Source: an uncultured Gemmatimonadales bacterium
Lineage (GTDB): Bacteria; Gemmatimonadota; Gemmatimonadetes; Gemmatimonadales; GWC2-71-9
DNA: 64,000 bases
Direction of reading: 5' to 3'
NCBI GenBank assembly: GCA_963730185.1
Contig: CAVSQW010000007.1
Coordinates: forward strand, 480,001-544,000
The position numbers and the translations under genes are program-made. Below, piece by piece: positions 4,847-22,689 of this stretch. A model generated the notes under the pieces. That model was not told the origin of the DNA, searched no databases, and saw only the letters and a program-made list of their open reading frames with translations. Position 1 is the first letter of the stretch. Each line of letters begins with the position of its first letter.

Positions 4847-7231
4847 CTACCTCCCAACTTCGTCGAACGTCTGATTCCCGATCCGATAGTGCCGCCAGTC
4901 CTGGTAGTCGAAGTGCCACCACTCGGCCTCGTAGACCGTGAACCCCTCCGCCGTCATGGTGCGGCGCAGGAGATCGCGGAGCCAGCGCTGGCGTGAGGTC
5001 CCGCCCGGGTAGTAGGGGTAGGACCGGTTGGAGAACTCGTCGTAACTCCCCGTCATCACGACCGGCTTCCCGGTCCGGAGATCGAACAGGGTGAGATCCA
5101 CGGCGCAGCCGCGGTTGTGGCGCGAGCCTTGGGACGGGTCCGCCACGAAGGTGTGGTTCTCGGGGGCGGTGCCGTCCCAGAACATCTTGGTGACGTACCA
5201 GGGCCGATAGCCGTCGTGGATCAGAAGACCATAGCCCATCGCGTGGAGCTTCCGATTGGCCCGGGCCACCGCCTCGGCCGCGGGGCGCTGGAGAAACGCG
5301 CGGGCCTCCTGGTAGAAGGGGGTCCGGGCGAAGTTGGTGGTGCTGGCGTAGCGGATGTCGAGCTTGATCGAGGGATCGACCTTCACCAGCTCCACCAGGT
5401 CGCTGGGCCGGAAGTCTCCCTGCTCCACCGGGGGTTTCGCGGCGAGCGCTTCCTTCCGGAGCTCGTCCACCGGGCGAGTCAGGTCGATGTGGAATGCCGA
5501 TCCGTCCTCGGGACCGACGTTCCGGCGCCGGAAGACGACGTTGGCGGCGCGCACCTCGGTCGCGCGACCGGCGGCGTCGCGGCGGAACACGAGGTCCTCA
5601 CCCGGGTAGAGGCCGTATTCGGGGAACCGCCAGGTCGAGTCGTTGGTCTGGGTCAGCGGGTACTCGGTGAACCACTCGATCAGGGCGTTGAGCTTCCCGC
5701 CCCGTTCCAGGATGAAGAGCGTGTTGTGGTCCCAGCCGTACTCGCCGATCAGGCCGTGCCAGGCGGGCGGGGGGGCGGGGGGGAGCGGCGGGCGAGCCGT
5801 GTGGGAGAGGGTGTCGTCGCCGAACACGAGCCGATCGCCCAGCGGGTAGACCCGCGGGCCCCAGGCCAGCTCGTCGTCCACGATCAGGGTGTCGCCGGCC
5901 AGGCGGCGGAGGACCTTCCGGGTCTCGCCGTCCCGCTCCCAGGCGACCAGCTGGTCGGTGTGGCGGGAGAGCCGGTAGGCGGTATGGAGGTTGGCCCAGT
6001 CGCCGGCGAGGCGCGCGGCAAGCGAGTCGGGCACGGTGATGGTGGTATCCACCCCGCGGAGCGGGCGGCCCCGCTTCAGGTCTCGGAGCATGCCGAGGGC
6101 GGTGGCGCCGATCCGGCTCATGACGGCATTGACCACGTCCTTGGTGCCGACCACCGCGACCGCGAGCTTTTCGTCCGGCATCGCCATGAAGTTGGTGGCG
6201 AAGCCGTAGATCGCGCCGTCGTGCGCGACCACGAAGGTGGAGTCGTCCCGGGTCACATAGAACCCGAGGCCGAATCCGGAGCGGGTCCCGGCCGGCACGA
6301 ACTGCGGCTGCCACATCTTTTCGAGCGTTTCCCGAGACAGGACTCGCCCGTTGGCGCCTTGGCCGCGATCGAAAATGACCTGGGCGAATTGGGCCAGGTC
6401 ATTCACGGTGGAGTACATGCTTCCCGCCGGCGCCATCCCCAGCGCGAAGGTGGGCGCCGGGAACTCGCGCTCGTCGTAGGTCCACATCGTGGCTTGGGCC
6501 AGGCGCGGGCGGAGCCGGTCGTCGATCGCGAAGGCGCTCGACCCCAGGCCCATGGGCTCGAGCACGGCGTGAGCCAGGTAGGTCGCGAACGGCTCTCCCT
6601 TCACCTTCTCCAGCACATAACCCACCGTGCCGATGCCCGCGTTGGAATACTTGGTGCGTTGACCCGGCGGGTAAAACAGGCTGGTCTGATTGAGACTCGC
6701 CACCATGTGGGACAGCGTGGAATCCGACGGGTCGAAGTAGTTCCCGACCGGCGGCTCGCGGGTGAGCCCCGCCCGGTGCGACATCAGATGGCGGAGGGTG
6801 ATGTCGCCGCCGAACGGGTTGGCGGGGTGGAAGTCCGGGAGGTACGTCTGGATCGGGGCGTCGAGATCGAGCTCGCCCCGTTCGACCAGCTGCATGATCC
6901 CGATGTCGGTGAAGAGCTTCGAGACCGAGCCGATGCGATAGACCGTGTTGGCGGTGGCCGCGCTCTCGGCCGGAGCGCCGGCCGTGCCGAACCCCTGGGC
7001 CCAGATCGTCTTGGGACCGTCGATCAGCGCGATGGAGACGGCCGGGATGTGCTGGGCGGCCATCTCGTGCTCGATCAGCGCCGACATCGCCTCGGCGATC
7101 GGGGCATATTGCCCCTCGGCCGGGACGCGGTCGGGGGCGGGGCCGGCGCCGCCAGCGTCGCCGTCGCGTCCACAGGCGAGCGCGGCGAGCAGGAGCGGGG
7201 CAAGGCGAAGGGCTCGGGTCATGGGCGTCAT
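4847..7231 (-). CDS. Serine hydrolase (beta-lactamase family) fused to D-alanyl-D-alanine dipeptidase (M15D/VanX-like); lipoprotein
   Basis: LAALAC lipobox; SVSK, YSN, HDG; C-terminal DGYRP, SRHNRGCAVD, EAEWWHF; start could be 7222 or 7240. Confidence 0.85.
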   Translation of the reverse strand: MTPMTRALRLAPLLLAALACGRDGDAGGAGPAPDRVPAEGQYAPIAEAMSALIEHEMAAQHIPAVSIALIDGPKTIWAQGFGTAGAPAESAATANTVYRIGSVSKLFTDIGIMQLVERGELDLDAPIQTYLPDFHPANPFGGDITLRHLMSHRAGLTREPPVGNYFDPSDSTLSHMVASLNQTSLFYPPGQRTKYSNAGIGTVGYVLEKVKGEPFATYLAHAVLEPMGLGSSAFAIDDRLRPRLAQATMWTYDEREFPAPTFALGMAPAGSMYSTVNDLAQFAQVIFDRGQGANGRVLSRETLEKMWQPQFVPAGTRSGFGLGFYVTRDDSTFVVAHDGAIYGFATNFMAMPDEKLAVAVVGTKDVVNAVMSRIGATALGMLRDLKRGRPLRGVDTTITVPDSLAARLAGDWANLHTAYRLSRHTDQLVAWERDGETRKVLRRLAGDTLIVDDELAWGPRVYPLGDRLVFGDDTLSHTARPPLPPAPPPAWHGLIGEYGWDHNTLFILERGGKLNALIEWFTEYPLTQTNDSTWRFPEYGLYPGEDLVFRRDAAGRATEVRAANVVFRRRNVGPEDGSAFHIDLTRPVDELRKEALAAKPPVEQGDFRPSDLVELVKVDPSIKLDIRYASTTNFARTPFYQEARAFLQRPAAEAVARANRKLHAMGYGLLIHDGYRPWYVTKMFWDGTAPENHTFVADPSQGSRHNRGCAVDLTLFDLRTGKPVVMTGSYDEFSNRSYPYYPGGTSRQRWLRDLLRRTMTAEGFTVYEAEWWHFDYQDWRHYRIGNQTFDEVGR

Positions 7232-7322
7232 GGCTTGCACGTGGCCGACTTCATTCGAGAGACGGACGGATGGCGGACGGGTGACTCGGGAATCTACCCC
7301 CCACCTCGGTAGATTTCAGGCC

Positions 7323-7682: not shown

Positions 7683-7702
7683 TCCTCCTCGACGAGCCCA
7701 CC

Positions 7703-8098
7703 ATGACGCGGATTCCGAAAGCAGTGCTCGCGCTCCTCCTGGCCGGCGCGGGCTCGGCGGGAGCCCAGGCCGTACCCGACTCGCTGCCCCCGACCGTGAC
7801 CGCGGCGATGGTCGCCAAGGGACGAGAGCTCTTCGTGGGGCCGGGGCTCTGCGTGGCGTGCCACGGTTTCGACGGGACCGGGGCGATCGGCCCCGATCTG
7901 ACGGACACCATGTGGCTTCACCCCGACGGGTCCTACCTCGCCCTGGTGGCGAGGATCATCCACGGCGTTCCCGACTCGGAGTCGGTCAGCGGTACGGCGA
8001 TGCCCCCCAAGGGGGGCTCGGCCCTCACCGACGACGAGGTCCGGTCGGTGGCCGCCTACGTCTGGAGTCTCTCCCGGCCGCCCAGCGGCCGCCGTTAG
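7703..8098 (+). CDS. Periplasmic monoheme cytochrome c
   Basis: Signal peptide, CVACH, GPDLTD..WLH, MPPKGG. Confidence 0.9.
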   Translation: MTRIPKAVLALLLAGAGSAGAQAVPDSLPPTVTAAMVAKGRELFVGPGLCVACHGFDGTGAIGPDLTDTMWLHPDGSYLALVARIIHGVPDSESVSGTAMPPKGGSALTDDEVRSVAAYVWSLSRPPSGRR

Positions 8099-9114
8099 GC
8101 GGCCCCCGGCCCCGGCGGGGGCCGTTCCTCCCAGTCCAGCTCGAACCGCTCCACCAGGTCGGCCGCGCCCAGCCGGGTCAGGGCCTCCAGGGCCCGAGCC
8201 CGCTCCGCGGCCGCCGACTCCGCTTGCCCGAGCGAGCGCAGCGCCAGGGCTCGAATGCCGGCCGCCTGGGCCGCGATCAGGGCGCTCCCCTGGGCGTCGG
8301 CCGCCCGGCCCACCTCGGCCGCCGCCTGGGCCGCCCGCTCCGTCTGGCCGATTTGCAGCTGAATCAGGGCCCGGAGCCGGCCGACTTCCAACAGCAGGAG
8401 CGGGTCGTCCGCGGTCCGGGCCAGGGCCTCCGCTCCGTCGAGCTTGGCCGCGGCCGCGGTGAAGTCCTGGCGCTCGATCTCGATGCCGGCGCCGCCCGCC
8501 AGGCAGAGGCCGAGGAGGTCTGGCCGCTGGCATCGCTCCGCCCGTTGGATCGCTTGATCCGCGGCATAGGTGGCGTCGCGAAGCGCGCCCAGCTGCTGGA
8601 ACCGAAGGGCGAGGTTGTGGAGGGTCTCGGCCGCGCCCCGGCAGTCGCCCGCGGCCTCGTAGGCGGAGAGCGCGCTGCGGTAGAGCCGAAGGGCCCGCTC
8701 CACCTGCCCCTGCAGGTGAGCGATGTTCGCCAGATTGTTGGTGGTGCGGGCGATCATCACCTGATCACCGAGGCGACGGGCGAGCTGACGGGCGTTCCCG
8801 AATCGAAGCTCGGCCCGGCCGATCCGGCCGCACTCGAAGTCCACCGCGCCCATGAGGTTGGTCGCCCTGAGGGCGCCGGGCTGGTCGTCCCGGTCCAGGA
8901 ACGCCTGGAGCGCCCAGTCGGCCCAGCGGCCGGCTGCTTCCAGCTGCCCCAGCCGGCCGGCCGAGCTGGCGGCGAGAAAGAGGATCTCGGGCCCCGCCGT
9001 CCGAACGTCGTCCGGCCCGAGGCCCTCGAACCGGTCCAGCACCTCTCGAAACCGGCCCGAGGCGTGGAGCAGCTCGAGCTCGAAGGGGTCGGGCCCCGAT
9101 CGGACCGAGCTCAT
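8095..9114 (-). CDS. Tetratricopeptide repeat protein (stand-alone)
   Basis: ATG 9114 overlaps the upstream TGA (ATGA); repeats NLMGAV, NNLANIA, HNLAL. Confidence 0.75.
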   Translation of the reverse strand: MSSVRSGPDPFELELLHASGRFREVLDRFEGLGPDDVRTAGPEILFLAASSAGRLGQLEAAGRWADWALQAFLDRDDQPGALRATNLMGAVDFECGRIGRAELRFGNARQLARRLGDQVMIARTTNNLANIAHLQGQVERALRLYRSALSAYEAAGDCRGAAETLHNLALRFQQLGALRDATYAADQAIQRAERCQRPDLLGLCLAGGAGIEIERQDFTAAAAKLDGAEALARTADDPLLLLEVGRLRALIQLQIGQTERAAQAAAEVGRAADAQGSALIAAQAAGIRALALRSLGQAESAAAERARALEALTRLGAADLVERFELDWEERPPPGPGAA

Positions 9115-10701
9115 GCGGCCTCCGACGGCGGGGGCAGCTCGGCCACGACCCGCAGGAAGGCGTCGTACACCTCCGGCCGCCAGCAGTGCCGCGACTCGGC
9201 CAGCTTGCCAAGGGCCACCTCGACGCTCAGCGCCCCCCGATAGCTTCGGGTGGTGGTCAGCGCGTCGAAGACGTCGACGATTCCGATGATCTCGGCCGAG
9301 AGGAATCTCGTCACCGACCAGCGCGTCCGGATAACCGGTGCCATCGCGCTTCTCGTGATGCCAGCGGATCATCGGCTCCACGTCCCAAGGGAACGGAATC
9401 CCGGCCAGCATCTCGACCCCCCAGACCGGGTGCTTCTTGATCGTCTCGAACTCGTCGTCGGTCAGGCGGCCCGGCTTGTTCAGGACCTCGTGGGGAACCT
9501 TCACCTTGCCGAGGTCGTGGAGGTAGGCGCCGACCCGAATGGTGGTGAGGTCCACGTTGCTCAGACCCAGCTCCCCGGCGAGCGCCACGGCGTAGTCGGC
9601 CACCCGCTCGCAGTGACCGAAGGTGTAGCTGTCGGCCGACTCGATCGATTCGCCCCAGCTCCGGACCACGGCGAGATAGGTGTCTTCGAGATGGCGGACC
9701 TTGGCGGTGACGTCGACCTGCTCGACCCGCGCGTCAAGCCGCTGGAAGAGCCGGTGCGCGCGCGTCAGCAGGGTCAGGGCTTCGCGGTTCCGCCCGGCCT
9801 GACGATAGAGCAGGGCGATCTCGCGCGAGGCCTCGGCCTCGCCGAGCAGCGAGCCGCAGGCGTGGAAGAGGTCGATCGCGGCCCGGAGCCGGGCTTCGGC
9901 CAGGGTCGGCCGCTGGGTGTCCCGATACACCATGCCGAGGAGCTTGTAGGCGCCGGCCTTGTCGGGGCGGGAGTCGAGCTGATCGAAGATCGTGAGCGCT
10001 CGCTCGGCCAGCCGGCCGGCCTCGTCGGTCTGGCCGAGGGCCAGGAGAACCTCACCGTAGTTGAGGCGGCAGAGGCCCTCGAGGTGCCTGTCGCTCAAGC
10101 TCTGGGCGAGCTCGAGACTCTGGCGATAGTGCGCGGCCGCGTCGTCCCATCGACCCTGGTCCGCGTCCACCATGCCGAGGTTGTGGCAGGCCAGCGCGGT
10201 CCCGTGGCGGTCGCCGGCCGTGAGGAAGCCGGCCAGCGAGCGCTCGTAGTGGCCGCGGGCCCGCGACCAGTCGCCCTGCACGTTGGCAATGATCCCAAGG
10301 TTCTGCTCCACCCGAGCGCCGATGATGGCCTCGTGCCCGGCGATCCGGAGCGCCTCCTGAAAGAGGGCTCGGGCGCGATCGTAGGCGCCGGATTCGAGCT
10401 CGATCACCCCGGCGGTGTTGAGCGCCTCGCCGGCCAGGTGAGCATCGTCGGCCTTTCGAGCCAGGGCCGCCGCCTCGCGACAGGCCGACCGAGCGCCCTC
10501 GCGGTCGCCGCGCTGGAAGCAGAGCACCCCCGCGCGTCGCAGGGCTTCGCTGGCGATGGCCGGGAACTCGGCGGCTCCGGCGGCCTCGCGGTAGGCGGCG
10601 AGGGCCAGGGCAGCCTGGCCGGCGCGGTCGAGCTCGCGTCCGCGGGCCAGCGCGGCGTCGGCCTCGAGGGGCCGGGCCGGCCGGACCAGGGTGGCCGTCA
10701 C
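9111..10701 (-). CDS. TPR + HD-GYP cyclic-dinucleotide phosphodiesterase (frameshift near 9300)
   Basis: N-terminal TPRs (QNLGII, HNLGMV, LNYGEV); HCERVA, LHDLGK, HHEKRDGTGYP; C-terminus SAEIIGIVDVFDALTTTRSYR lies in another frame (ORF 9111-9344). Confidence 0.85.
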
Positions 10702-10705
10702 CGCG

Positions 10706-11284
10706 CTACCAGGCGACGGCGTAGCGGGAGAAGTGATCGAGGCGGCCCTCGACCGTCCGGTGCGCCGGATCGTCGCGGGAGGGAATGACCTCGAGGATCG
10801 TCCCGCCGTCGTTGGTGGTATACACCATCCGCTTGGGCGTCCGGACCAGCGCGCACGAGCCGTAATCGAGCTCGAGCCGGGCCGGGACTTGGAACTGGAG
10901 ACCCTCCGGCCCGAACACGACGGAAGCGGTGCCGTCTCCGAGGAAGGTTCCCGAGATCACGACCGGCCGGTCCAGGGCGCCCGGCGGAACGATCAGCTCG
11001 TGCCGCCCGACTTTGAGGCGGCCGCCCTCGGGGCCGATCCGGGCCGCGTTCCGAGCCGGGAGCTCCAGCGGACAGGTGAGCAGTTGGAGAGTCTCCGCGA
11101 GCAGGCTGGTCAGGCCGTTCGTGGTGCGCTGGACGCCGCCGAGCAGCCCGCCGATCAGCGAAGTATTGGGCGCGGGTGGCGGGGGGGCGTTCGACGGCTC
11201 GAACGGCTCGACCGTACAGGAGACGAGTACGAGCGACAGCAGGCCGATGAGGGCGGCACGGGCGGTCAGGCGGCGACGAGACAC
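10706..11284 (-). CDS. Lipoprotein with ZU5-like domain ending HFSRYAVAW
   Basis: GTG 11284 after GGAGA; lipobox-like LVSC; IGPEGGRL..LIVPPGAL..FGPEGLQF..P ZU5 pattern; terminal HFS. Confidence 0.7.
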   Translation of the reverse strand: MSRRRLTARAALIGLLSLVLVSCTVEPFEPSNAPPPPAPNTSLIGGLLGGVQRTTNGLTSLLAETLQLLTCPLELPARNAARIGPEGGRLKVGRHELIVPPGALDRPVVISGTFLGDGTASVVFGPEGLQFQVPARLELDYGSCALVRTPKRMVYTTNDGGTILEVIPSRDDPAHRTVEGRLDHFSRYAVAW

Positions 11285-11679
11285 GACGTTTCTCCGATCG
11301 TCCAGGTTCGGGTCACCGGTTTCGATCACGGTAACGGTGGCACCCCGGAGCGCAACTGGAATGCCGAGCCCGAAGATCGGCAATGCATACAATCTTGACG
11401 CCGAGTCAAGCGATATCTCGTAACTAATTGCAATGACAAGAGATGTCGACCTCGAACGGTGTATTCCAATTTGACGGTATTGTGAAGAAAGCGTACGGTT
11501 CGACGGGGTGGGCGTGGGGGCGGCGAAGAGGAGCTGTCGCGTTGGCACGTCGACAGAAATGGCTCGGGGAGTGGGGTCGGCTCGTCGATTTTCCGTCGTC
11601 GCGGTATTATTGCCGCGCGTTCTCGCTCGGGTCCTGGGAGTCGGCCCGGCCTTCCTCCGCTTCAGCCCCGCAGGTTTCG

Positions 11680-12396
11680 ATGACCGCGCCTCCTCGTGAT
11701 GCCCCCCGCCAGCGCACCGACCTGGTCAGCCAGGCCTATCGTGAGATCCGCGATCTGATCGTCCGGTCTCGGCTGGCCCCCGGCGCTCGGATTCTCGAGC
11801 ATCAGGCGGCGACCCGGCTCGGCCTGAGCCGGACCCCGGTGCGGGCCGCGCTGCAGCGGCTTCAGCAGGAGGGCTACGTCACGGGGGCCGCGCCGGGACG
11901 GCGGGCTCGCCCGACGGTCACTCCGCTCACGATGGAGGACGCACTCGAGCTCTTCTCGATCGTGGGCGAGATCGAGGGGCTGGCGGCGGAGCACTCGGCG
12001 GGCCTGCCGTCGGCGGAGCGGAGGGCGCTGGTGGACGAGCTCACCGCGATCAACGACGAGTATCTTCGGGCCGCCACGTCGGCCCACCCCGAGGGTGACG
12101 ACCTGTTCTCGCTCGACACCCGATTTCACCGGCGGTACGTGGAGGCCGGGGCGGGGGCCAGGTTGGTGGCCCTCCATGACGCGATCAAGCCGCAAACCGA
12201 GCGGTACATCCGGGTCTACCAGACCGCGCTGGTCGAGGCGATCCGGACCTCGGTCAAGGAGCATCGGATCATCGTGGAGCGGATCGCCGAGGGGCCGCCC
12301 GCGACGGCCCAGGAGGCGGTGCGCACCAATTGGCGCAACGCCGCCCTGCGCTTACAGGCGGTCATCGGCTCGCGGGGCGAAACCGGGATCTGGTAA
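11680..12396 (+). CDS. GntR family regulator (FCD domain)
   Basis: LGLSRTPVRAALQRL wHTH; DTRFH and EHRII FCD motifs. Confidence 0.9.
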   Translation: MTAPPRDAPRQRTDLVSQAYREIRDLIVRSRLAPGARILEHQAATRLGLSRTPVRAALQRLQQEGYVTGAAPGRRARPTVTPLTMEDALELFSIVGEIEGLAAEHSAGLPSAERRALVDELTAINDEYLRAATSAHPEGDDLFSLDTRFHRRYVEAGAGARLVALHDAIKPQTERYIRVYQTALVEAIRTSVKEHRIIVERIAEGPPATAQEAVRTNWRNAALRLQAVIGSRGETGIW

Positions 12397-12644
12397 GCCC
12401 CGTAGAGAAGGATCAGTCACCGTTCGTTTGATCCATCGTTTGGACGTCGAAATCTTGGGACCGCTCTGTGCTTGCGCGGCGTGAGATCGGCCATTAGCAT
12501 AGTGGCGTTCAGTAAATTGGATGCAAAGACGTATTCATGACTGTGCGCACCTGAATCGCACCTGATTTGGGGCGCCAACAGGTTCTTTCCCCTCGCGCTC
12601 TTACGGGCGCGGCAATTGTGGTCCAAAGCGCACGGAGTCAACCC

Positions 12645-15587
12645 ATGAGGCTTAGTACAGTCCTCGGCTTGGGCGGCGTCTTCCTGGCTGCAGTCGCAGC
12701 CCCCTTGGTAGCCCAGCAGGAAGTGGGCGGCCGGGTGACGGACGGTCGTACCGGGCGCTCCCTCGAGGGAGCAATCGTGGCGGTGCAAGGCGGGACCCCG
12801 TCGACCCGAACGGACAATGACGGTCGATTCAAGTTGACCGGTCTGAGCGGGGGGACTGTCACCCTCTCGATCACCATGATTGGGTTCCGCCCCGGGACCC
12901 AAACGGCCAACGTTGGCAACATGAACCTCCAGATCACGCTCAACGAGCTGGCGGTGAACCTGGGTGAGTTGGTCGTTACCGGGACGGTCGCGGGGGCCGA
13001 GAAGCGGACGGTCGGCAATTCGGTCACGACGGTGCGGGCGGCGGACGTGCAGGAGATCGCGCCGGCACCGGACGTGAGCAACCTGATCAACGCGCGGGCG
13101 CCGGGCGTGGTGGTGATTCCGGGCAGCGGCCAGGTGGGCGCTGGTCCCCGGATCAAGATCCGGGGCACCAACAGCTTCTCGCTCAACGATCAGCCGCTGA
13201 TCTACGTGGACGGCGTCCGGGTCGCGAACGACGTCTCGACCGGCATCAACGTCCAGGCCTTCGGCTCGGCGCTCGTCTCGCGGCTGAACGACTTCAGCCC
13301 CGACGAGATCGACCATATCGAGATCCTCAAGGGTCCGGCGGCGGCGACGTTGTACGGCACCGAGGCCTCGAACGGTGTGATCCAGATCTTCACCAAGCGG
13401 GGGCAAGCCGGCGGGAAGCCGAAGATCTCGGCGACCGTCCGGCAGGGCACCCAGTGGTTCTCGAATCCGGAAGGTCGGATCCGGCAGCCGGTGAACATGG
13501 TCAACGGCGTCCTGACGGCCTGGGATCCGGTCCGCCAGGAGGACTCGCTCTACAAGCTGGGTCTGGTATCACGGCCGCTGTTCTCGAACGGCTACATGAT
13601 GGGCTACGGCGCCAACGTGGGCGGCGGGAACAGCACCGTCCGCTACTTCGCCGGGGCCACGTTCGACCGGGACAACGGGATCGAGCCGGTCAACAACCAG
13701 CGTCGGCTCACGACCAATCTGAACCTCAATCTGACGCCCTCGGACAAGTGGGACCTCCAGGCGTCGATGTCGTACGTGAAGACCAAGCTCAACCAGGCGT
13801 ACGAGGCCGGCGCGGGCGGGATCTGGTTCTCGACCCTGTTCGGCGATCCGGGGCTGGTCAATCAGCCGGAGCGTGGCTTCCTGTTCGGTCCGCCCGAGTT
13901 CCAGTGGGGGATCGCCCAGCCGTCGCAGAACATCGACCGGATGACCGGGAGCATCACCATCAACCACCGGCCGACCAAGTGGTTCAGCCAGCGGTTGACG
14001 GTGGGTCAGGATCAGACGGCCGAGGCGAGTGAGGAGCTGCAGCCCTATCTGTCGAACCCCGAGTGGGTGCGGTGGTGCTCCGGTGACTGCGCTCTGGGGT
14101 ACAAGTACACCCAGAACCGGGCCATCAGCTACACGACCTTCGACTACAACGCCAACGCCAAGTTCAGCCTCAGCGACAAGATCGGGACCACCACCTCGTT
14201 CGGCGCCCAGTACTACCGGCGGCGGACCAACACGATTTGGGCGGAGGGCGATCGGTTCCCGGCCCCGGGTCTCGAGACGGTGGGAACGACGGCGCAGACC
14301 TTCGGGTTCGACGACTTCATCGAGAACTCCACGGTCGGCTTCTTCGGGCAGGAGCAGGTCGCGATCAACGACAAGCTCTACCTGACCGGCGCCCTCCGGG
14401 TCGACAACAACAGTGCCTTCGGCTCGGACTTCAACTGGATCGTCTATCCGAAGCTCAGCGCCTCCTACGTGGTGGCGGAGGGGCAGACGGGCACGGTGAA
14501 CGCCCTCAAGCTCCGAGCCGCCTACGGTCAGGCCGGTCAGCAGCCGGACGCCTTCGCGGCGCTCCGGAGCTACCAGGCCGTGACCGCCGGCGACGGCTCG
14601 CCGGCCATCATCCCGCAGTTCGTCGGCAACCCGAACCTCAAGCCCGAGCGGGGCACCGAGTTCGAGACCGGCTTCGAGGCGGGGCTCTTCAACGACAAGG
14701 TGGCGGTCGACTTCACCTTCTACTACCAGAAGACGCGAGACGCCATCCTCAACAAGTCGCTGGCGCCGTCGACCGGCTTCCCGGGCCTCCAGTTCGTCAA
14801 CATCGGGTCGCTCCGGAACATGGGCATCGAGGGCCAGATCTCGGTGACCCCGATCGAGCATCGGAACTTCCGGCTCCAGACCGACCTCAACTTCTCCCAC
14901 AACAGCAACAAGGTCCTGAGCCTCGGCGAGGGCGTCGACTCGCTCGGCACCTTCGGGCCCAAGGTCGGCTATCCGGTCGACGCGATCTTCCGGCGCAAGG
15001 TGACGAGCGCCCAGCTGGATTCGAACGGCAACGCGATCAACGTCCTCTGCGACGGCGGCGCCTCGGGCGTCGACAAGGCCTGCAGCTCGGCCGGCGGTCT
15101 TTATCTCGGCGTCTGGGATCCGCGCTGGGAGGGCTCGTTCAGCGCGACGGTGACGCTGCACAACCGGCTCCGCCTGTACGGGCTGGTGGACTTCAAGCTC
15201 GGCAACCGGCACTTCGACAACAACCTGCGCGCCCTCTGCCAGGTGTTCCGTCGCTGTGACGAGAACTTCAACCCGCAGAACTACGACGTGCTGACCATCG
15301 CCGAGATCCAGAGCAACAACGTGGCCCAGAGCTGGGTGATCAACAAGGCGGACTTCGCCAAGATCCGCGAGCTCTCGGTCGGCTACTCCTTCCCGCGGCG
15401 GATGGCGAAGTGGGTCGGGGGGCAGGACGCGACGCTGACCCTGTCCGCCCGGAACCTCCACACCTTTACGGGGTGGAGCGGGATGGATCCCGAGGCCTAC
15501 TTCGTGACCCAGTTGTTCACCCGGTTGGAGCAGGACAACACCCCGCAGCTGGCCTCGTTCCAGGCCACGCTCAACATCTCGTTCTGA
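12645..15587 (+). CDS. SusC/RagA TonB-dependent outer membrane transporter
   Basis: Signal peptide, carboxypeptidase-like N domain, QPLIYVDGV, EILKGPAAATLYGTEASNGVIQIFTK, GNPNLKPE, C-terminal F. Confidence 0.95.
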   Translation: MRLSTVLGLGGVFLAAVAAPLVAQQEVGGRVTDGRTGRSLEGAIVAVQGGTPSTRTDNDGRFKLTGLSGGTVTLSITMIGFRPGTQTANVGNMNLQITLNELAVNLGELVVTGTVAGAEKRTVGNSVTTVRAADVQEIAPAPDVSNLINARAPGVVVIPGSGQVGAGPRIKIRGTNSFSLNDQPLIYVDGVRVANDVSTGINVQAFGSALVSRLNDFSPDEIDHIEILKGPAAATLYGTEASNGVIQIFTKRGQAGGKPKISATVRQGTQWFSNPEGRIRQPVNMVNGVLTAWDPVRQEDSLYKLGLVSRPLFSNGYMMGYGANVGGGNSTVRYFAGATFDRDNGIEPVNNQRRLTTNLNLNLTPSDKWDLQASMSYVKTKLNQAYEAGAGGIWFSTLFGDPGLVNQPERGFLFGPPEFQWGIAQPSQNIDRMTGSITINHRPTKWFSQRLTVGQDQTAEASEELQPYLSNPEWVRWCSGDCALGYKYTQNRAISYTTFDYNANAKFSLSDKIGTTTSFGAQYYRRRTNTIWAEGDRFPAPGLETVGTTAQTFGFDDFIENSTVGFFGQEQVAINDKLYLTGALRVDNNSAFGSDFNWIVYPKLSASYVVAEGQTGTVNALKLRAAYGQAGQQPDAFAALRSYQAVTAGDGSPAIIPQFVGNPNLKPERGTEFETGFEAGLFNDKVAVDFTFYYQKTRDAILNKSLAPSTGFPGLQFVNIGSLRNMGIEGQISVTPIEHRNFRLQTDLNFSHNSNKVLSLGEGVDSLGTFGPKVGYPVDAIFRRKVTSAQLDSNGNAINVLCDGGASGVDKACSSAGGLYLGVWDPRWEGSFSATVTLHNRLRLYGLVDFKLGNRHFDNNLRALCQVFRRCDENFNPQNYDVLTIAEIQSNNVAQSWVINKADFAKIRELSVGYSFPRRMAKWVGGQDATLTLSARNLHTFTGWSGMDPEAYFVTQLFTRLEQDNTPQLASFQATLNISF

Positions 15588-15618
15588 GCCGCTTCGGGGC
15601 GAAAGGAGATTACTGACG

Positions 15619-16932
15619 ATGCGCAACGCATCTTGGGTCATTCGACGGGCGCTGGTGCCACTCAGTGTCCTGGTCCTCCCGCTGGTTACCCTCGCGGGCT
15701 GCAACAAACTGCTCGACGTTCAGGCGCCGAGCCGGGTGGCGGTCGACGTGCTCGACCGGCCGTCCTCCGCCGGCCTCCTGGTGGACGGGGCGCGGGCCGC
15801 CTTCGGGTGCGCCTACCAGGCCTACATCATGGGCAACGCCCTCCTCACCGACGAGATGGACGACACCCAGCTCGCCGCGGCGGCCTGGGATTGGGACCGG
15901 CGGAGCTGGAACGGCTCGCTCGGGCAGGCCTACGCCGAGTCGCCGTGTGACGCCGGCCAGATCTTCGGGACCTACCGGCCGCTCCAGACGGCGCGCTTCT
16001 CGGCCGACGACGCGGTGAACCGGCTGGCGGCCTTCAGCGACGCCGACGTGCCGGGCCGGGCCGCGCTCCAGGCGCAGGCCAACCTGCTGTCCGGGTACAA
16101 CCGAATCATGTTGGGCGAGGGCTTCTGCACGATGGCGATCGACAACGGTCCGGAGATCACCCAGACCGACGTCTTTACCCAGGCCGAGCAGTACTTCACC
16201 GACGCCATCACGTTCGCGGCCTCGGCCGGAGACGCGGATCTGGGTAACGCCGCCAAGGTCGGACGGGCCCGAGCTCGGCTCGATCTGGCCCGGGTTCCTG
16301 GGCAGGCGGTCAGCAACCAGAATTACACCGACGCGATGTCCGATGCGTCGCAGGTGCCGGCCGGGTTCGAGTACGACATGGCCTACAACCCGAACTCGAG
16401 CTACAGCCGGAACAACATCTCGGCCCGGAACCGGAACTTCCTCCAGTACGGCATCGGGGTGAACTACCGGAACCTGAACGATCCGCGGGTCGTGGTGACC
16501 AACTCGGGGCAGACCGGCGCCGACGCGGTCAGCATCGTCTGGCTCACGGACAAGTACCCCAGCCAGAGCTCGCCGATCGTGTTGGCCTCGTACAAAGAGG
16601 CCCAGCTGATCCTGGCCGAGGGGCAGTTGTTCACCAGCGGTCCGGCCGCCGCGGTCGCGACGCTGGACGCCCTCCGGGGCCGGGCCGGTGTGGGTCTGCC
16701 GCCCTACAGCGGCACCGTGGACGCCGCCAGCGTGCAGGCGTTCCTGCTCTCCGAGCGATCCAAGGAGCTGTTCCTCGAGGGGCAGCACTTCTGGGACATC
16801 GCCCGGTTCAACCTGCCGCTCGACCCGCCCGCGGGGACGGTCTACCCGGGCAAGGGCGGCAACTACGGCGATCTCCGCTGCCTCCCGCTTCCCGACATCG
16901 AGCGGATCAACAACCCGAACATCGGGGGATGA
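15619..16932 (+). CDS. SusD/RagB nutrient-binding lipoprotein
   Basis: LAGC lipobox, follows SusC; ERSKELFLEGQHFWD and LPLPDIERINNPN motifs. Confidence 0.9.
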   Translation: MRNASWVIRRALVPLSVLVLPLVTLAGCNKLLDVQAPSRVAVDVLDRPSSAGLLVDGARAAFGCAYQAYIMGNALLTDEMDDTQLAAAAWDWDRRSWNGSLGQAYAESPCDAGQIFGTYRPLQTARFSADDAVNRLAAFSDADVPGRAALQAQANLLSGYNRIMLGEGFCTMAIDNGPEITQTDVFTQAEQYFTDAITFAASAGDADLGNAAKVGRARARLDLARVPGQAVSNQNYTDAMSDASQVPAGFEYDMAYNPNSSYSRNNISARNRNFLQYGIGVNYRNLNDPRVVVTNSGQTGADAVSIVWLTDKYPSQSSPIVLASYKEAQLILAEGQLFTSGPAAAVATLDALRGRAGVGLPPYSGTVDAASVQAFLLSERSKELFLEGQHFWDIARFNLPLDPPAGTVYPGKGGNYGDLRCLPLPDIERINNPNIGG

Positions 16933-17104: not shown

Positions 17105-18391
17105 CTATGGAAAGTCAGGGAATCTGTCGCCGGTCGGCCAGGTGGTGACGGCGCCCAGGGCCTGGCCGAGGGTCGGGTCGATCAGCGACTCGAACTGGGA
17201 GTTGGGGACCATGGCGCGGGCGTTGAAGACCGCGGCGACGGTGATGCCGCTGGCGTAGCGGGCCACGAACGACGCGGTGCCCGGCAGAGACCCGTTGTGC
17301 CACCAGTTGCCGGGATCGGGGCGCACCAGCCAGCCGAGGCCGTAGAAGTAGGAGGAGCCGGTCCAGACGTTGGGAGGCGCCATCAGCATCTGGATCCGCT
17401 CGGCGGGCCCGATCAGGTCGGGGCGGACCGAGCCGGCGTCCATGGCGGTCATGAACTTGACCAGGTCGACCGCCGAGGCGATCCAGCCGCCGTGGGAGTC
17501 CATGGACTCGATGTAGAACCCGCCGTAGGCGAACGGGACCACGCCCTCGCCGGGGAAGACGGACTCCGCGGTGGCGGGGTCGTAGTAGTGGACCTCGCCG
17601 GCGGCTGCCTGCGGCAGCCGCGAGTGGCCCAGCTCCATCCGGGTGATGCCCGCCGGGGCCATGACGTTGGCCCTCATCCAGTCGCCGTAGGGCTGGCCGG
17701 TGACGTGCTCGATGATCCGGCCCAGGACCATGTAGCCGAAGTTGGAGTAGGCGTAGCGGGCGCCCGGGTCGAAGTCGAGCTGCCGGCCCTCCATATAGGA
17801 GATGACATCCTCGGCACTGGCCGGCTGGGCGGCACCCAGGGCGCCGGCGATCTGGGCGTTCTGGAATACCGGGTCGCCGCTCACGTCGCGGTCCCAGCCG
17901 CCCACGTGCCAGAGCAACTGGCGGACGGTGATGGTGGCGAGCCGCGGGTCGACCGTGGCGCCCGCTGGCGGCACGATGTCGGGGATCAGCGAGAAGGCCG
18001 GGGCGTCGAGGTCGATTTTCCCTTGGGCCGCCAGGCGGAGCAGCCCAGCGGAGGTGAACGGCTTCGAGACGCTGGCGATTCGGAAGAGCGCGTCGGGTTG
18101 GACGGTGGCCTTGGTCAGGGTGTCGGCGTAGCCGAACCCCCGGGCATAGACCAGCCGCTCGCGATAGGCCACCGCCACCGCGCCACCGGGAATCTGCCAG
18201 TTCTGCATCAGGGTCCGAATGCCCTGGTCCATCGCCTGGAGCTCGGGCACGGCGGTCCCGGTGATCGGGAGCTCGGGTGGAGGCGGCGGTGGCGGAGCCG
18301 GCGGATTGGGCGGGGTCGGCCCGCCGCCGCAGGCCAGGGTGAGACCGACCAGTGCGGTGACCGCGCGGCGAGCTCGAGAGTGGTGAGTCAT
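17105..18391 (-). CDS. Serine hydrolase (beta-lactamase family) lipoprotein
   Basis: LTLAC lipobox, Pro-rich linker, FRIASVSK, YSNFGY, HNGSLPG. Confidence 0.9.
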   Translation of the reverse strand: MTHHSRARRAVTALVGLTLACGGGPTPPNPPAPPPPPPPELPITGTAVPELQAMDQGIRTLMQNWQIPGGAVAVAYRERLVYARGFGYADTLTKATVQPDALFRIASVSKPFTSAGLLRLAAQGKIDLDAPAFSLIPDIVPPAGATVDPRLATITVRQLLWHVGGWDRDVSGDPVFQNAQIAGALGAAQPASAEDVISYMEGRQLDFDPGARYAYSNFGYMVLGRIIEHVTGQPYGDWMRANVMAPAGITRMELGHSRLPQAAAGEVHYYDPATAESVFPGEGVVPFAYGGFYIESMDSHGGWIASAVDLVKFMTAMDAGSVRPDLIGPAERIQMLMAPPNVWTGSSYFYGLGWLVRPDPGNWWHNGSLPGTASFVARYASGITVAAVFNARAMVPNSQFESLIDPTLGQALGAVTTWPTGDRFPDFP

Positions 18392-19664: not shown

Positions 19665-20996
19665 ATGACGAACGATAGCCGTGAGCGCCGTGGACCGGTC
19701 GGTCGGGGGTGGCTGAGGACCGTCGGGCTGATCGCGGTGGCGATCTCGGTGGGGGGCGGCCCGCAGGCTCTGTCGGCGCAGGGCGCGCCGGATCAGGCCG
19801 TGGTGCTCCGCCCGGCCGCGGTCTTCACCGGAACCGTGCTGGAGCGGGGCTGGAGCGTGGTGGTGGAGGGGAGCCGGATCACGGCGGCGGGCCCATCCGT
19901 GACCGCTCCCCGGGGCGCCAAGGTCGTTTCGCTGCCCGGGCTGACCCTGATCCCGGGGCTGATCGAGGCGCATTCGCACCTGCTCCTCCATCCCTACAAC
20001 GAGACCCCCTGGACCGACCAGGTCCTGAAGGAGCCCCTGGCTCTCCGGGTGGCGCGGGCGACGGTCCACGCCCGGAACACCCTGATGGCGGGCTTCACCA
20101 CGGTGCGCGATCTCGGCACCGAGGGGGCGGGCTACGCCGACGTGGGTCTGAAGCAGGCCATCGTCCAGGGGATCATCCCCGGCCCGCGGATGCTGGTGGT
20201 GACCCGGGCGATCGTGGCCACGGGAAGCTACGCCCCCAAGGGCTTCGACCCCCGCTGGGACGTCCCGCAGGGGGCCGAGGAGGCGGACGGCATCGAGGAC
20301 CTGACCCGGGTGGTGCGTGACCAGATCGGGAAGGGCGCCGACTGGATCAAGGTCTACGCCGACTATCGCTGGGGGCCGCACGGCGAGGCGGAGCCCACCT
20401 TTTCGGAGGAGGAGCTTCGGCGGATCGTCGAGACGGCCGCCAGCAGCGGCCGGAAGGTCGCGGCCCATTCGGTGACGCCCGAAGGGATGCGGCGGGCCAC
20501 GCTCGCCGGCGTCACCACGATCGAGCACGGCGACCAGGGCACGCCCGAGGTCTTTGCCCTGATGGCCGAGCGGGGGGTGGCGCTCTGCCCGACGGTGGCG
20601 GCGGGCGACGCGATCCTCCAGTACGGAGGCTGGCACAAGGGCGTCGATCCGGAGCCCGCGTCGATCGCGGCCAAGCGGGCCAGCTTCCAGGCGGCGATGG
20701 CGGCCGGGGTGACGATCATCAGCGGGAGCGATGTGGGCGTGTTCACCCATGGCGACAATGCCCGCGAGCTCGAGATCATGGTCGACTACGGCATGAGTCC
20801 GCTCAAGGCGCTGGAGGCGGCCACCAGCGCGGACGCCCGGGTGCTGGGCCTCGACGATCGGGGGCGGGTCGCCCCGGGCCTCCTGGCCGACCTGGTCGCG
20901 GTCGACGGCGACCCGACCGCCACGATCAGCGCGATCCGGAAGGTGAAGTGGGTGATGAAGGGTGGGGTCGTCTATCGGGACGACCTCTCGCATTGA
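19665..20996 (+). CDS. Amidohydrolase family protein (Xaa-Pro dipeptidase-like), secreted
   Basis: [35 protein letters not shown]; start uncertain. Confidence 0.88.
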
Positions 20997-21012
20997 ACTC
21001 TTGGAGCCTCAG

Positions 21013-22689
21013 ATGACACGCGTTTCCCTGGGCCTGACGGCGTTGCTCGCGGGGGCCGTCGCACCGACCCTCGCGGCGCAGTCCCTCACCGACGTCCAAC
21101 GACAGCGGGTCGACAGCGTCTTCGCCGACTTCGACGGGACCAGCCGGCCCGGCTGCTCGCTCGGGATCGGGCGGAACGGGACGCCGGTCTACCTCCGCGG
21201 GTACGGGATGTCCGACCTCCAGCACAACCTGGCGATCACCCCACAGTCGATCTTCCACGTGGCGTCGGTGTCGAAGGAGTTCACCGCCTTCGCCATTGGG
21301 CTTCTGGCCGACGACGGCAAGCTCTCACTCGACGACGACGTCCACAAGTACCTCCCCGAGCTCCCGGACTACGGGAAGCCGATCACTCTCCGTCACCTGA
21401 TCTACCATACCAGCGGGATCCGCGATCAGTGGGAGCTGCTCGGATTGGCCGGCTGGCGGTACCCGGACGATCTCTTCACCCAGGAAGACGTGCTTCAGAT
21501 CGTGACCCGGCAGAAGCACCTCAACTTCGACCCCGGCGAGCAGTGGCTCTACAGCAACTCGGGCTACACCCTCCTCGCGATCATCGTGGAGCGGGTCTCC
21601 GGCAAGACGCTCCGCCGGTTCGCCGATGAACGGATCTTCCAGCCGCTGGGCATGACCCGGACCCAGGTTCACGACGACCACGCCCGGATCGTCGTCGACC
21701 GGACGTCCGCCTATGAGCGGGGGGACAGCGGGGTCTGGAAGATCAGCATCCCCGACTTCGACACCCACGGCGCCACCAGCCTCTTCACCACGGCCGCCGA
21801 CCTGCTCAAGTGGATGCACAACTTCGACGCCCCGACGGTGGGAAGCGCCGCGCTCATCCGAGACGCCCAGACCTCGTCCAAATTGAACAGCGGCAAGGAC
21901 ACCAATTACGCCTTCGGGCTCAGCCTCGAGACCTACCGGGGGGTCCGCGCGATCGGGCACGGTGGGGCCGACGCCGGCTATCGGGCCGACGTCGTCCGGT
22001 TCCCGGACGAGGGGCTCGAGGTGAGCGTCCTCTGCAACTTTGCGGAGGCAACCCCGAACCGCTATTCGCGAGCGGTGGCCGATGTGCTGCTGAACGGCAA
22101 GCTCGGGCCCCGCGACGAAGTGGCGCCGGTCCCGACCGGGATCGCGCTGTCCGACGCGCAGCTCGATGAGGTGGCCGGCGTGTACCGGACCCCCGGCACC
22201 GACCAGGCCTGGCTCCTCCGACGGCAGGACGGGAAGCTCACCCTGGTGAATTTCCAGCTGCCGCTGGCACCGATCGACGCCCGCCGCTTCACCGCGGCCG
22301 GCGTGGTGGCCGAGTTCACGGGGCCGGAGGGACAGCCGGCCACGGGCGCGACCCTTCGGGTCGGCCGCCAGGTGATCGACTCGATGGTCCGGGCGCCCTT
22401 CTTCGCGCCGTCGCGCGCCCAGCTCGCCGCCTTTGCCGGCGAGTACTGGAGCGACGAGCTCCAGATCTGGTATCGGGTCGAGCTGGCCGATTCCGGTCTG
22501 GTGCTCCACCGACCCAAGTTCCCGACTCGGCCGATGACCCCGGCCTTCGCGGACGCGTTCTTGGTCCCCGGCACCGGCACGCTCCGGTTCGCGAGGGAAA
22601 AGGGGCGTCCGGCCCGGTTCTTCGTGACCGGCGGACGAGTGCGCGGGGTCGAGTTCCGGCGAGGCACGGAAGGGAGCATGTCGCGATAG
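21013..22689 (+). CDS. Serine hydrolase (beta-lactamase/D-aminopeptidase family), secreted
   Basis: Signal peptide; ASVSKEF, YSNSGY, HGGAD. Confidence 0.9.
   Translation: MTRVSLGLTALLAGAVAPTLAAQSLTDVQRQRVDSVFADFDGTSRPGCSLGIGRNGTPVYLRGYGMSDLQHNLAITPQSIFHVASVSKEFTAFAIGLLADDGKLSLDDDVHKYLPELPDYGKPITLRHLIYHTSGIRDQWELLGLAGWRYPDDLFTQEDVLQIVTRQKHLNFDPGEQWLYSNSGYTLLAIIVERVSGKTLRRFADERIFQPLGMTRTQVHDDHARIVVDRTSAYERGDSGVWKISIPDFDTHGATSLFTTAADLLKWMHNFDAPTVGSAALIRDAQTSSKLNSGKDTNYAFGLSLETYRGVRAIGHGGADAGYRADVVRFPDEGLEVSVLCNFAEATPNRYSRAVADVLLNGKLGPRDEVAPVPTGIALSDAQLDEVAGVYRTPGTDQAWLLRRQDGKLTLVNFQLPLAPIDARRFTAAGVVAEFTGPEGQPATGATLRVGRQVIDSMVRAPFFAPSRAQLAAFAGEYWSDELQIWYRVELADSGLVLHRPKFPTRPMTPAFADAFLVPGTGTLRFAREKGRPARFFVTGGRVRGVEFRRGTEGSMSR

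Follow-up and report, generated by a model that had tools for sequence, protein, structure and literature searches.

A conserved Gemmatimonadota gene module pairing a ZU5/GAIN-fold lipoprotein with TPR and TPR-HD-GYP proteins: a candidate peptide-signalling system

The window analysed here, a stretch of 64,000 nucleotides from an uncultured Gemmatimonadales bacterium (GenBank assembly GCA_963730185.1, contig CAVSQW010000007.1, positions 480,001 to 544,000), carries on its minus strand three consecutive genes that belong to a module conserved in Gemmatimonadota. Gene 1 encodes a lipoprotein with a ZU5/GAIN-fold domain and ends in RLDHFSRYAVAW-stop, gene 2 encodes tetratricopeptide repeats (TPRs) followed by an HD-GYP domain, and gene 3 encodes a protein in which the domain scan found only TPRs, as an earlier note made from the sequence alone had stated. 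Comparison with related loci revealed that the module is a real and conserved five-part system, and the three-gene arrangement far exceeds chance expectation. Below, G000 denotes the genome of the window, C13 one of its contigs, and L-numbers the related loci that were fetched. The features are listed in Table 1.

The earlier note had described a tightly coupled minus-strand trio. The order gene 1, gene 2, gene 3, the 4-base spacing between genes 1 and 2 (gene 2 starts with GTG at 10701) and the ATGA overlap of genes 2 and 3 at 9111-9114 all stand, but gene 2 is not a single frame as assembled, and the overlap is present only if a frameshift is read through. The break lies near 9301: the TPRs and most of the HD-GYP domain are encoded between 10701 and ~9301, the last ~60 residues are in another reading frame, and the Pfam HD_5 match is split over the two frames (model positions 7-126, then 129-162). 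Read literally, the sequence gives an 868-residue fusion of genes 2 and 3, which we rejected as a product of the frameshift. A near strain, X1, has a public contig (record 4) with two extra bases behind 9301, which restore the frame. The near-strain contigs X1-X3 span the region in pieces; record 4 is a single contig with a depth of 3.8 and 23 differing letters over 444, and an error there is possible too. Orthologues as a rule have intact TPR-HD-GYP frames, and 75 distinct closed ones were aligned. The frameshift is probably a homopolymer assembly error; a strain-specific mutation is a possible alternative. Frameshifts in the same types of genes also occur in other assemblies (L035, L042, L043, L051, L086 and L166), and such breaks are therefore common in the collection.

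Table 1. Features of the module in the window, with the related gene set on contig C13 of the same genome
Feature	Positions	Strand	Description
Gene 1	10706..11284	-	192-residue lipoprotein: lipobox Cys23, low-complexity linker, ZU5/GAIN-fold domain (residues ~70-192), conserved Cys71/Cys144 pair
HFS motif (His184-Phe185-Ser186)	10727..10735	-	Predicted self-cleavage site between Phe and Ser, in the turn that joins the final two strands
Heptapeptide SRYAVAW	10709..10729	-	C-terminal; last strand of the fold, candidate signal
Gene 2, N-terminal part	9667..10701	-	About eight TPRs; Asn ladder N95/N134/N174/N214; conserved R56, E217, E290; co-varying E103
Gene 2, C-terminal part	9111..9666	-	HD-GYP domain interrupted by the frameshift; Y/F subfamily, probably two-metal
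Frameshift in gene 2	9299..9303	-	Loss of two bases in a short homopolymer; probable assembly error
Gene 3	8095..9114	-	339 residues, TPR only, second TPR clade
Sigma-54-type -24/-12 site	11352..11365	-	GGCA-N6-TTGC, ~70 bases upstream of gene 1
Short inverted repeat	11395..11409		Upstream of the promoter; possible activator site
Gene set on C13	C13: 85426-91890 (L178:1427-7630)		SBP_bac_5 lipoprotein (divergent), sigma-54 site, unnamed acidic-tail lipoprotein, sigma-54 activator, class B ZU5-like lipoprotein, TPR protein

The gene 1 product has a lipobox-type N-terminus, judged by inspection, followed by the linker and a beta-sandwich that was modelled with a predicted local distance difference test score (pLDDT) of 87. 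The top Foldseek matches of this model were the ZU5 domains of ankyrin, ZO-1 and UNC5b (E 1e-5 to 4e-4), and VIA-align gave Z scores of 11.8 against ankyrin-B ZU5 (root-mean-square deviation 2.4, 111 aligned), 9.3 against UNC5b and 8.8 against the CD97 GAIN domain, which bears out the ZU5-like lipoprotein of the earlier note. Also present is an H-x-S/T motif in the turn that leads into the last strand, a trait of the ZU5/GAIN superfamily (PMC3482391, PMC8195603), and gene 1, as judged from the predicted model, is a member of this fold superfamily. At the sequence level, the Pfam ZU5 model (PF00791) scored 18.4 bits, below its cut-off of 21, and a sequence-only search of solved structures returned weak ankyrin and ZO-1 matches (E 0.2-1.3). 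NCBIfam has no model for gene 1, and no relative was found in the viral contigs searched. ESM Atlas returned unnamed clusters, mostly of Gemmatimonadota, together with one ZU5-labelled cluster at 0.88 that serves as a lead only. The family comprises 1,243 clusters at 50% identity, and 79 of 80 related loci carry Gemmatimonad names, the other being a short contig binned elsewhere.

In the model, the HFS motif is located between strands 177-184 and 187-191. H184, F185 and S186 are invariant in all 148 aligned relatives, which were gathered with a query containing the motif; Cys23 (conserved in at least 90%), Cys71 and Cys144 are nearly invariant. The same fold, an HFS or SFS at the domain end, a buried Phe and a nucleophilic Ser are found in PIDD, Nup98, the FIIND domains of CARD8 and NLRP1 and the bacterial toxin-associated ZU5 domains (PMC3210808, PMC3482391). 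As described there, these proteins free or expose whole downstream domains, whereas in gene 1 nothing but the last strand lies downstream. Self-cleavage of bacterial GAIN-like domains is a recent finding: the MAIN domains (Brogan and Rudner, bioRxiv 10.64898/2026.05.12.724683) are of a GAIN/ZU5-type fold, with a signal peptide and an HXS motif, and are exported, as the gene 1 product would be. In MAIN domains, cleavage was demonstrated between the Phe and Ser of HFS and is abolished by the change of Ser to Ala. Because PIDD, Nup98, CARD8 and MAIN domains cleave themselves, we infer the same chemistry for gene 1, and cleavage between F185 and S186 is very probable by this analogy. The overall architecture is different: MAIN proteins are described as large, with a mean mass of 158 kDa, adhesion or enzyme domains at the N-terminus and a wall anchor at the C-terminus, whereas gene 1 has 192 residues, no other domain, an N-terminal anchor and only seven residues past the cut. 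The main text of the preprint associates no signalling with the C-terminal piece and makes no mention of Gemmatimonad, TPR, HD-GYP, lipoprotein or ZU5. MAIN-domain structures were not among our fold-search matches, and gene 1 may still belong to that group.

The position of the stop codon is conserved as well. Seven residues followed HF in 74 of 91 and in 132 of 147 matches to queries that contained the tail. Because these queries included it, a tail-free search was run with gene 1 residues 60-180 against 121 genomes, 39 of which had a match. The resulting tail-free set consists of 84 distinct domain matches from the fetched loci and leaves out G087, an unpublished genome that is present in the tallies of the 121-genome, oligopeptide-binding protein and distant-pair searches and underlies no claim. 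A cleavage-type motif was found in 78 of the 84 (68 HFS, 4 HFC, 3 HLS, and one each of HFT, HYS and QLT) with a pattern that permitted S, T or C alone at the nucleophile position. As many as 69 of the 84 stop exactly seven residues on from an H-F-S/T/C-type motif, within the 6-8 residues that the earlier note had expected of homologues; the remainder comprises eight with 8-30 residues after the motif, one multidomain protein and six without the motif. In the seven-residue tails, position 6 is Ala or Ser in 101 of 103 and position 7 is Trp, Tyr or Phe in 99 of 103.

Twelve multidomain ZU5 proteins, encoded in genomes of the same kind, have S-x-Y-A-V/I in common with the tail, differ from it at positions 6 and 7 and continue for hundreds of residues. 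These control proteins (L022, L023 and L185-L194) are large and exported, with an internal ZU5 domain, H/S-F-S and long C-terminal regions, and are MAIN-like but with inverted anchoring. A second lipoprotein family (class B), 27% identical over 90 residues to the gene 1 family (class A), has the same type of tail and the same stop and is followed by a TPR gene. Its domain is larger, and the motif His is mostly replaced by Gly or Ser; according to PMC3210808, the His-less SFS self-cleaves in CARD8 and the H862A variant of Nup98 is only slightly impaired. At three loci (L214, L138 and L151), the tail is tandemly duplicated with its amino acids kept, and the copies in L214 have two synonymous differences and zero amino-acid changes. 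Tandem duplications of the tail are also found in proteins P0075, P0076 and P0079. Elsewhere (L147, L159, L035, L047 and L173), arrays of three to six ZU5 lipoprotein genes precede one TPR gene, with slightly different tails and, in some, Cys as the nucleophile.

Across Gemmatimonadota, the gene that follows the ZU5 gene nearly always encodes a TPR protein, usually a TPR-HD-GYP protein, and the pairing is also found in distantly related families of the phylum. The 80 named loci (L031-L110) were chosen by a tail-containing pattern; there, the gene after ZU5 encoded a TPR protein in 74 of 88 cases with at least 600 bases of flank and another ZU5 protein in 13. The tail-free set gave 42 TPR genes, 16 ZU5 genes and 9 of neither kind (n=67), so that the siting beside TPR and TPR-HD-GYP genes claimed in the earlier note is a conserved one. 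A TPR gene was next in none of the six multidomain controls with enough flank. By hand count, a TPR-linked HD domain is present in 65 of the 80 loci; of the remaining 15, 8 are cut off by a contig edge. Some ZU5 genes have no TPR neighbour. EF-G, D-Ala-D-Ala ligase-like and radical-SAM genes nearby were attributed to lineage synteny and disregarded.

The gene 2 TPR region was modelled with a pLDDT of 95. Its Z scores were 29.7 against LGN/Pins, 25.9 against MalT, 25.9 against RapI, 23.1 against NprR, 21.0 against AimR and 19.4 against PlcR, in a class of repeat folds that score high generally; with Rap folds at 24-26, the order of nearness is LGN/Pins, then APPBP2, MalT and the Rap proteins. 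The Asn ladder is kept in 95-99% of 120 gene-2-type TPRs, and R56, E217 and E290 are also conserved. No signal peptide is visible by inspection in gene 2 or gene 3. The best NCBIfam match of gene 2, HaaT, was rejected as generic TPR likeness (112 bits versus a cut-off of 1125). The Asn-lined repeats fused to an HD-GYP domain that the earlier note reported are present with the ladder and the catalytic residues, although the fusion is intact only with the frameshift read through; its assignment of the repeats to the RRNPP type does not agree with the published layout of that class, and LGN/Pins are the nearest folds.

With the frame restored, the window encodes the metal ligands, HD, HH, GYP and Asp/Lys pair of an HD-GYP domain. 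In the consensus of the 75 orthologues, all PmGH-type ligands are kept except E185, which is replaced by Tyr. With the Y/F subfamily of HD-GYP domains, predicted to be binuclear (PMC4159591), gene 2 has in common the Asp/Lys pair, GYP, seven of the eight metal ligands of PmGH and the Tyr at E185; it differs in its TPR-array input and in an Arg at the K317 position. The domain is predicted to hydrolyse cyclic di-GMP (c-di-GMP); another cyclic dinucleotide could be the substrate.

The TPR proteins fall into two clades that are ~25% identical, typified by genes 2 and 3, and in both the residue at TPR position 103 follows the charge of tail position 2. In clade 2, residue 103 is acidic in 89 of 93 pairs with an Arg2 tail and in none of 12 with an Asp/Glu tail (6 basic); in clade 4 the corresponding counts are 25 of 25 and 2 of 7 (5 basic), the acidic-tail/basic-103 pairs of this clade having come later, via the activator search. 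When all 245 TPR columns were ranked by charge swap, column 103 was first in each clade separately. Distant pairs fetched afterwards had an acidic 103 in the nearest TPR for 16 of 16 Arg tails and 4 of 10 other tails (hand count). Residue 103 is, we presume, position 13 of a TPR A-helix and faces the groove. Other candidates for co-variation (D247, L160, A125, D86 and D330) were dropped as they failed in one or both clades, and no TPR column common to both clades tracked Trp versus Tyr at tail position 7. A complex predicted for the TPR region of gene 2 and the 30 C-terminal residues of gene 1 scored 0.28 against a mark of 0.32, with no controls folded, and counts neither for nor against a contact. 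Because tail position 2 and TPR position 103 co-vary, we propose a contact between Arg2 and Glu103, and a direct tail-TPR contact is likely on this basis.

Two further components recur at these loci. Of 134 homologues that come first in their run, 78 have a strict sigma-54-type motif upstream, where dinucleotide shuffles predict 0.9 and the reverse strand gives 0; of 21 tandem downstream copies, 1 has it. These 155 genes are what remained of 235 rows when a short tail, a lipobox that could be recognised and sufficient upstream DNA were required, and the strict pattern was fixed after looking at earlier motif results. A gene for a sigma-54 activator recurs near the module; in 29 other activator loci, the next gene encodes a ZU5 protein in 22 and a TPR protein in 7. 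The GG-N10-GC -24/-12 site and the linked enhancer-binding protein are consistent with a sigma-54 regulon. A shared upstream activator site was sought in these regions and not established. The seven activator-TPR pairs with no ZU5 gene in their vicinity (L212, L216, L218, L219, L221, L225 and L227) have the unnamed acidic-tail lipoprotein, in one to three copies, at their flanks; it may be another input.

The other component is one orthologue of an SBP_bac_5 oligopeptide-binding protein, present upstream or downstream of the module in 42 of the 80 loci and in 34 of the 56 loci of at least 10 kb, against a background in G000 of about five SBP_bac_5 genes per 5.27 Mb. ZU5, TPR, activator, TPR-HD-GYP and oligopeptide-binding protein genes all lie in one run in L287 and L288, and in L283 and L282 the binding-protein and permease genes are directly upstream of TPR-HD-GYP. 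Proteins of 1,600-1,700 residues were also seen in L283, L282, L277 and L280; that of L283 has the order TPR-HD-GYP-GGDEF-AAA and lies behind the binding-protein and permease genes, as in L282. In the genome of the window itself, the second half of the system lies on C13 (Table 1); the activator there has an N-terminal domain without a Pfam receiver match, and the TPR protein is 42% identical to gene 3. Two OppC-type permease genes of G000 are located away from this set. The linkage of binding-protein and permease genes to the module suggests a dedicated import of the tail, and the binding protein, the sigma-54 promoter and the activator would fit the idea of the earlier note, partly supported by the computed results, that SRYAVAW freed by self-cleavage is a ligand of the TPR-phosphodiesterase, and would fill its import step.

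We slightly favour the following circuit: self-cleavage of the gene 1 product gives SRYAVAW, and this peptide is imported and bound by the TPRs that control a c-di-GMP phosphodiesterase and a sigma-54 activator. First, the gene 1 product, with its lipobox and Cys pair, would be exported and lipid-anchored. Second, its ZU5/GAIN domain, of which the fold and the motif are observed, would cut between F185 and S186 by an N-to-O acyl shift. Third, the seven-residue last strand, conserved in length and stop, would become a free peptide only after unfolding, degradation or displacement of the small domain and would remain docked before that; this is the weakest step. Fourth, the oligopeptide-binding lipoprotein linked to the module would pass the peptide to an oligopeptide permease (Opp). 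Fifth, in the cytoplasm, the peptide would bind in the Asn-lined TPR groove, with Arg2 against Glu103, the one pair that co-varies. Sixth, binding would switch the fused HD-GYP phosphodiesterase, whose catalytic residues are present, and, via the TPR-only proteins, also the sigma-54 activator that would drive the precursor's own promoter, at which the motif is found. Such a circuit would tie the turnover or damage of envelope lipoproteins, of the own cell or of neighbours, to c-di-GMP and transcription. As release would follow unfolding or turnover, it would count envelope damage or lysed and shedding neighbours as much as it would signal density.

Several observations weigh against this circuit. 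With respect to release, cleaved MAIN domains co-purify, non-covalently bound, and are parted only by SDS or 95 C (bioRxiv 10.64898/2026.05.12.724683), the last ZU5 strand of UNC5b is described as crucial to fold stability (PMC3210808), and a 7-mer has no handle for force. Ala stands at the nucleophile position in L272 and L275 and a loop replaces HFS in L279 and L295, all distant homologues in which the tail and the TPR neighbour are kept. With respect to the tail, five of its seven positions are accounted for by the fold alone, as the multidomain proteins show, and paralogous tails are almost alike, in contrast to RRNPP codes. Column 103 first drew attention in clade 2, part of the same data; the two Glu-tail pairs that retain Glu103 belong to a clade 4 subclade without Asn95; and a tree-aware test yielded three independent contrasts (1.9 the same way, 0 opposite; p 0.5), which is not significant; a sign test with three contrasts cannot attain significance. 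The related genomes are non-independent samples. With respect to linkage, the sigma-54-type site precedes only 3 of 36 genes with non-Arg tails, seven activator-TPR loci have no ZU5 gene within 1.5 kb, and TPR-HD-GYP orthologues of gene 2 occur as orphans (L261 and L262). In a reverse count made by hand with G000 and G087 left out, a module gene lay within 1.5 kb of 12 of the 15 closest orthologues of the binding protein and of 2 of the next 13. In the window, no binding-protein gene is adjacent to the three genes, and gene 2 is broken as assembled.

Many of these points would also be expected if tail and TPRs made no contact, the tail being simply the structural last strand of an envelope lipoprotein, the genes sharing a sigma-54 regulon and the TPRs binding each other, the activator or another protein. 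The five tail positions found in multidomain ZU5 proteins, the MAIN fragments that are reported to remain bound, the activator-TPR loci without ZU5, the orphan TPR-HD-GYP genes and the reliance of the co-variation on three contrasts all suit this explanation. We consider it unlikely, given that the same TPR column ranks first in two clades of ~25% identity, that all 16 distant Arg pairs agree, that two unrelated-looking lipoprotein families have the same tail and stop, and that duplicated tails keep their amino acids.

The TPRs may instead read the same tail inside the cell with no import, on an un-exported or unfolded precursor or as a self-cleaved tail, as a monitor of secretion or folding: on failure of export or lipoprotein processing, the precursor would accumulate in the cytoplasm and its free C-terminus would bind the TPR. 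Such a monitor requires no release from a folded periplasmic domain and accounts for the fixed stop, the aromatic C-terminus and the charge swap. It also accounts for the nucleophile-less variants that keep tail and TPR, which fit explanations in which the tail is read without self-cleavage, and LGN/Pins, the closest of the TPR folds, are binders of extended stretches of protein. The monitor would leave unexplained the oligopeptide-binding protein and permeases linked to the module and the Ser/Thr/Cys nucleophile kept in 78 of 84, and we regard it as improbable. It is very unlikely that the peptide is real but excised by ordinary periplasmic proteases during lipoprotein turnover, with self-cleavage as an ancestral, dispensable aid and the oligopeptide-binding protein, or a stripped ZU5 domain binding a partner strand in the envelope, as the main sensor: Ala and inserted-loop variants persist beside TPRs, class B mostly lacks the motif His, and the ZO-1 ZU5 domain was solved with a partner peptide (entry title 2kxs), but HFS is invariant in class A, the variants are few, the His-less SFS of CARD8 self-cleaves and Nup98 H862A is only slightly impaired (PMC3210808).

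The proposed import circuit resembles, in its presumed working, two known kinds of peptide signalling. With the RRNPP systems (Rap-Phr, NprR-NprX, PlcR-PapR and AimR-AimP), as characterized in PMC10075063, it shares a secreted precursor encoded next to a cytoplasmic TPR receptor, a signal in the last residues, peptide duplications and, in our proposal, Opp import. However, RRNPP propeptides are given there as 10-100 residues, whereas gene 1 is a folded lipoprotein of 192 residues that is predicted to cleave itself, and RRNPP receptors as 250-500 residues with C-terminal TPRs, whereas gene 2 has ~530 residues with N-terminal TPRs and a C-terminal HD-GYP domain; gene 3 (339 residues) is within the receptor range but is TPR throughout. 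The hosts are Firmicutes on one side and Gemmatimonadota, with putative c-di-GMP and sigma-54 outputs, on the other. The pCF10 system of Enterococcus (cCF10, PrgZ, Opp and PrgX), as described in PMC7117660, likewise has a seven-residue peptide from a lipoprotein precursor, a cytoplasmic receptor and an OppA-like binding protein, dedicated to the peptide, that makes use of the Opp permease encoded on the chromosome; there, the peptide stems from the signal peptide via signal peptidase II and Eep, a repressor serves as receptor and the host is Gram-positive. In GAIN domains of adhesion G-protein-coupled receptors, according to the MAIN preprint, the last strand after cleavage (the Stachel) also acts as a ligand once exposed. 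The Stachel is tethered to a seven-transmembrane receptor and freed by force, whereas the strand of gene 1 would act as a free peptide, with a TPR protein of the cytoplasm as its separate receptor.

Each part of the predicted system is of known fold, and we infer the mechanism. The literature searched holds no description of the combination; one could stand in subscription papers or supplements, and the supplementary tables of the MAIN preprint (15,000 proteins) might include members. Intracellular peptide-TPR signalling has been described for Firmicutes and their phages (PMC10075063); if true, the module would join it to GAIN-type self-cleavage, with a bearing on the origin of tethered-agonist signalling in adhesion receptors. 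It would also be a first candidate circuit for communication or envelope sensing in an abundant, poorly understood soil phylum. With more reserve, we suggest a phylum-wide peptide communication of Gemmatimonadota, in which a free 'Stachel' strand would be stored in the envelope, shed when the domain unfolds or is turned over, captured by the OppA-like protein, imported and read by TPRs, with c-di-GMP output, sigma-54 autoinduction and specificity set by the residue 2/103 charge pair. Such a system would have arisen convergently, as a counterpart of RRNPP signalling outside the Firmicutes, and would be a bacterial example of a GAIN-type strand that acts as a ligand. The hypothesis is cheaply testable with a synthetic 7-mer, the named charge pair and an enzyme read-out.

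Close to the module, a small cytochrome c gene (7694-8098, plus strand) converges on gene 3 and a GntR/FCD regulator gene (11680-12396, plus strand) is divergent from gene 1; neither showed conservation as a neighbour across the related loci. Judged from the translations, the window further encodes a TonB-dependent receptor-like protein of 1006 residues followed by a SusD/RagB-like lipoprotein (12567-16932, plus strand). Open reading frames with motifs of serine beta-lactamases or penicillin-binding-type proteins are located at 120-1100, 4847-7240, 17105-18391 and 20962-22689, and one of them is apparently fused to a D-Ala-D-Ala dipeptidase-like domain.

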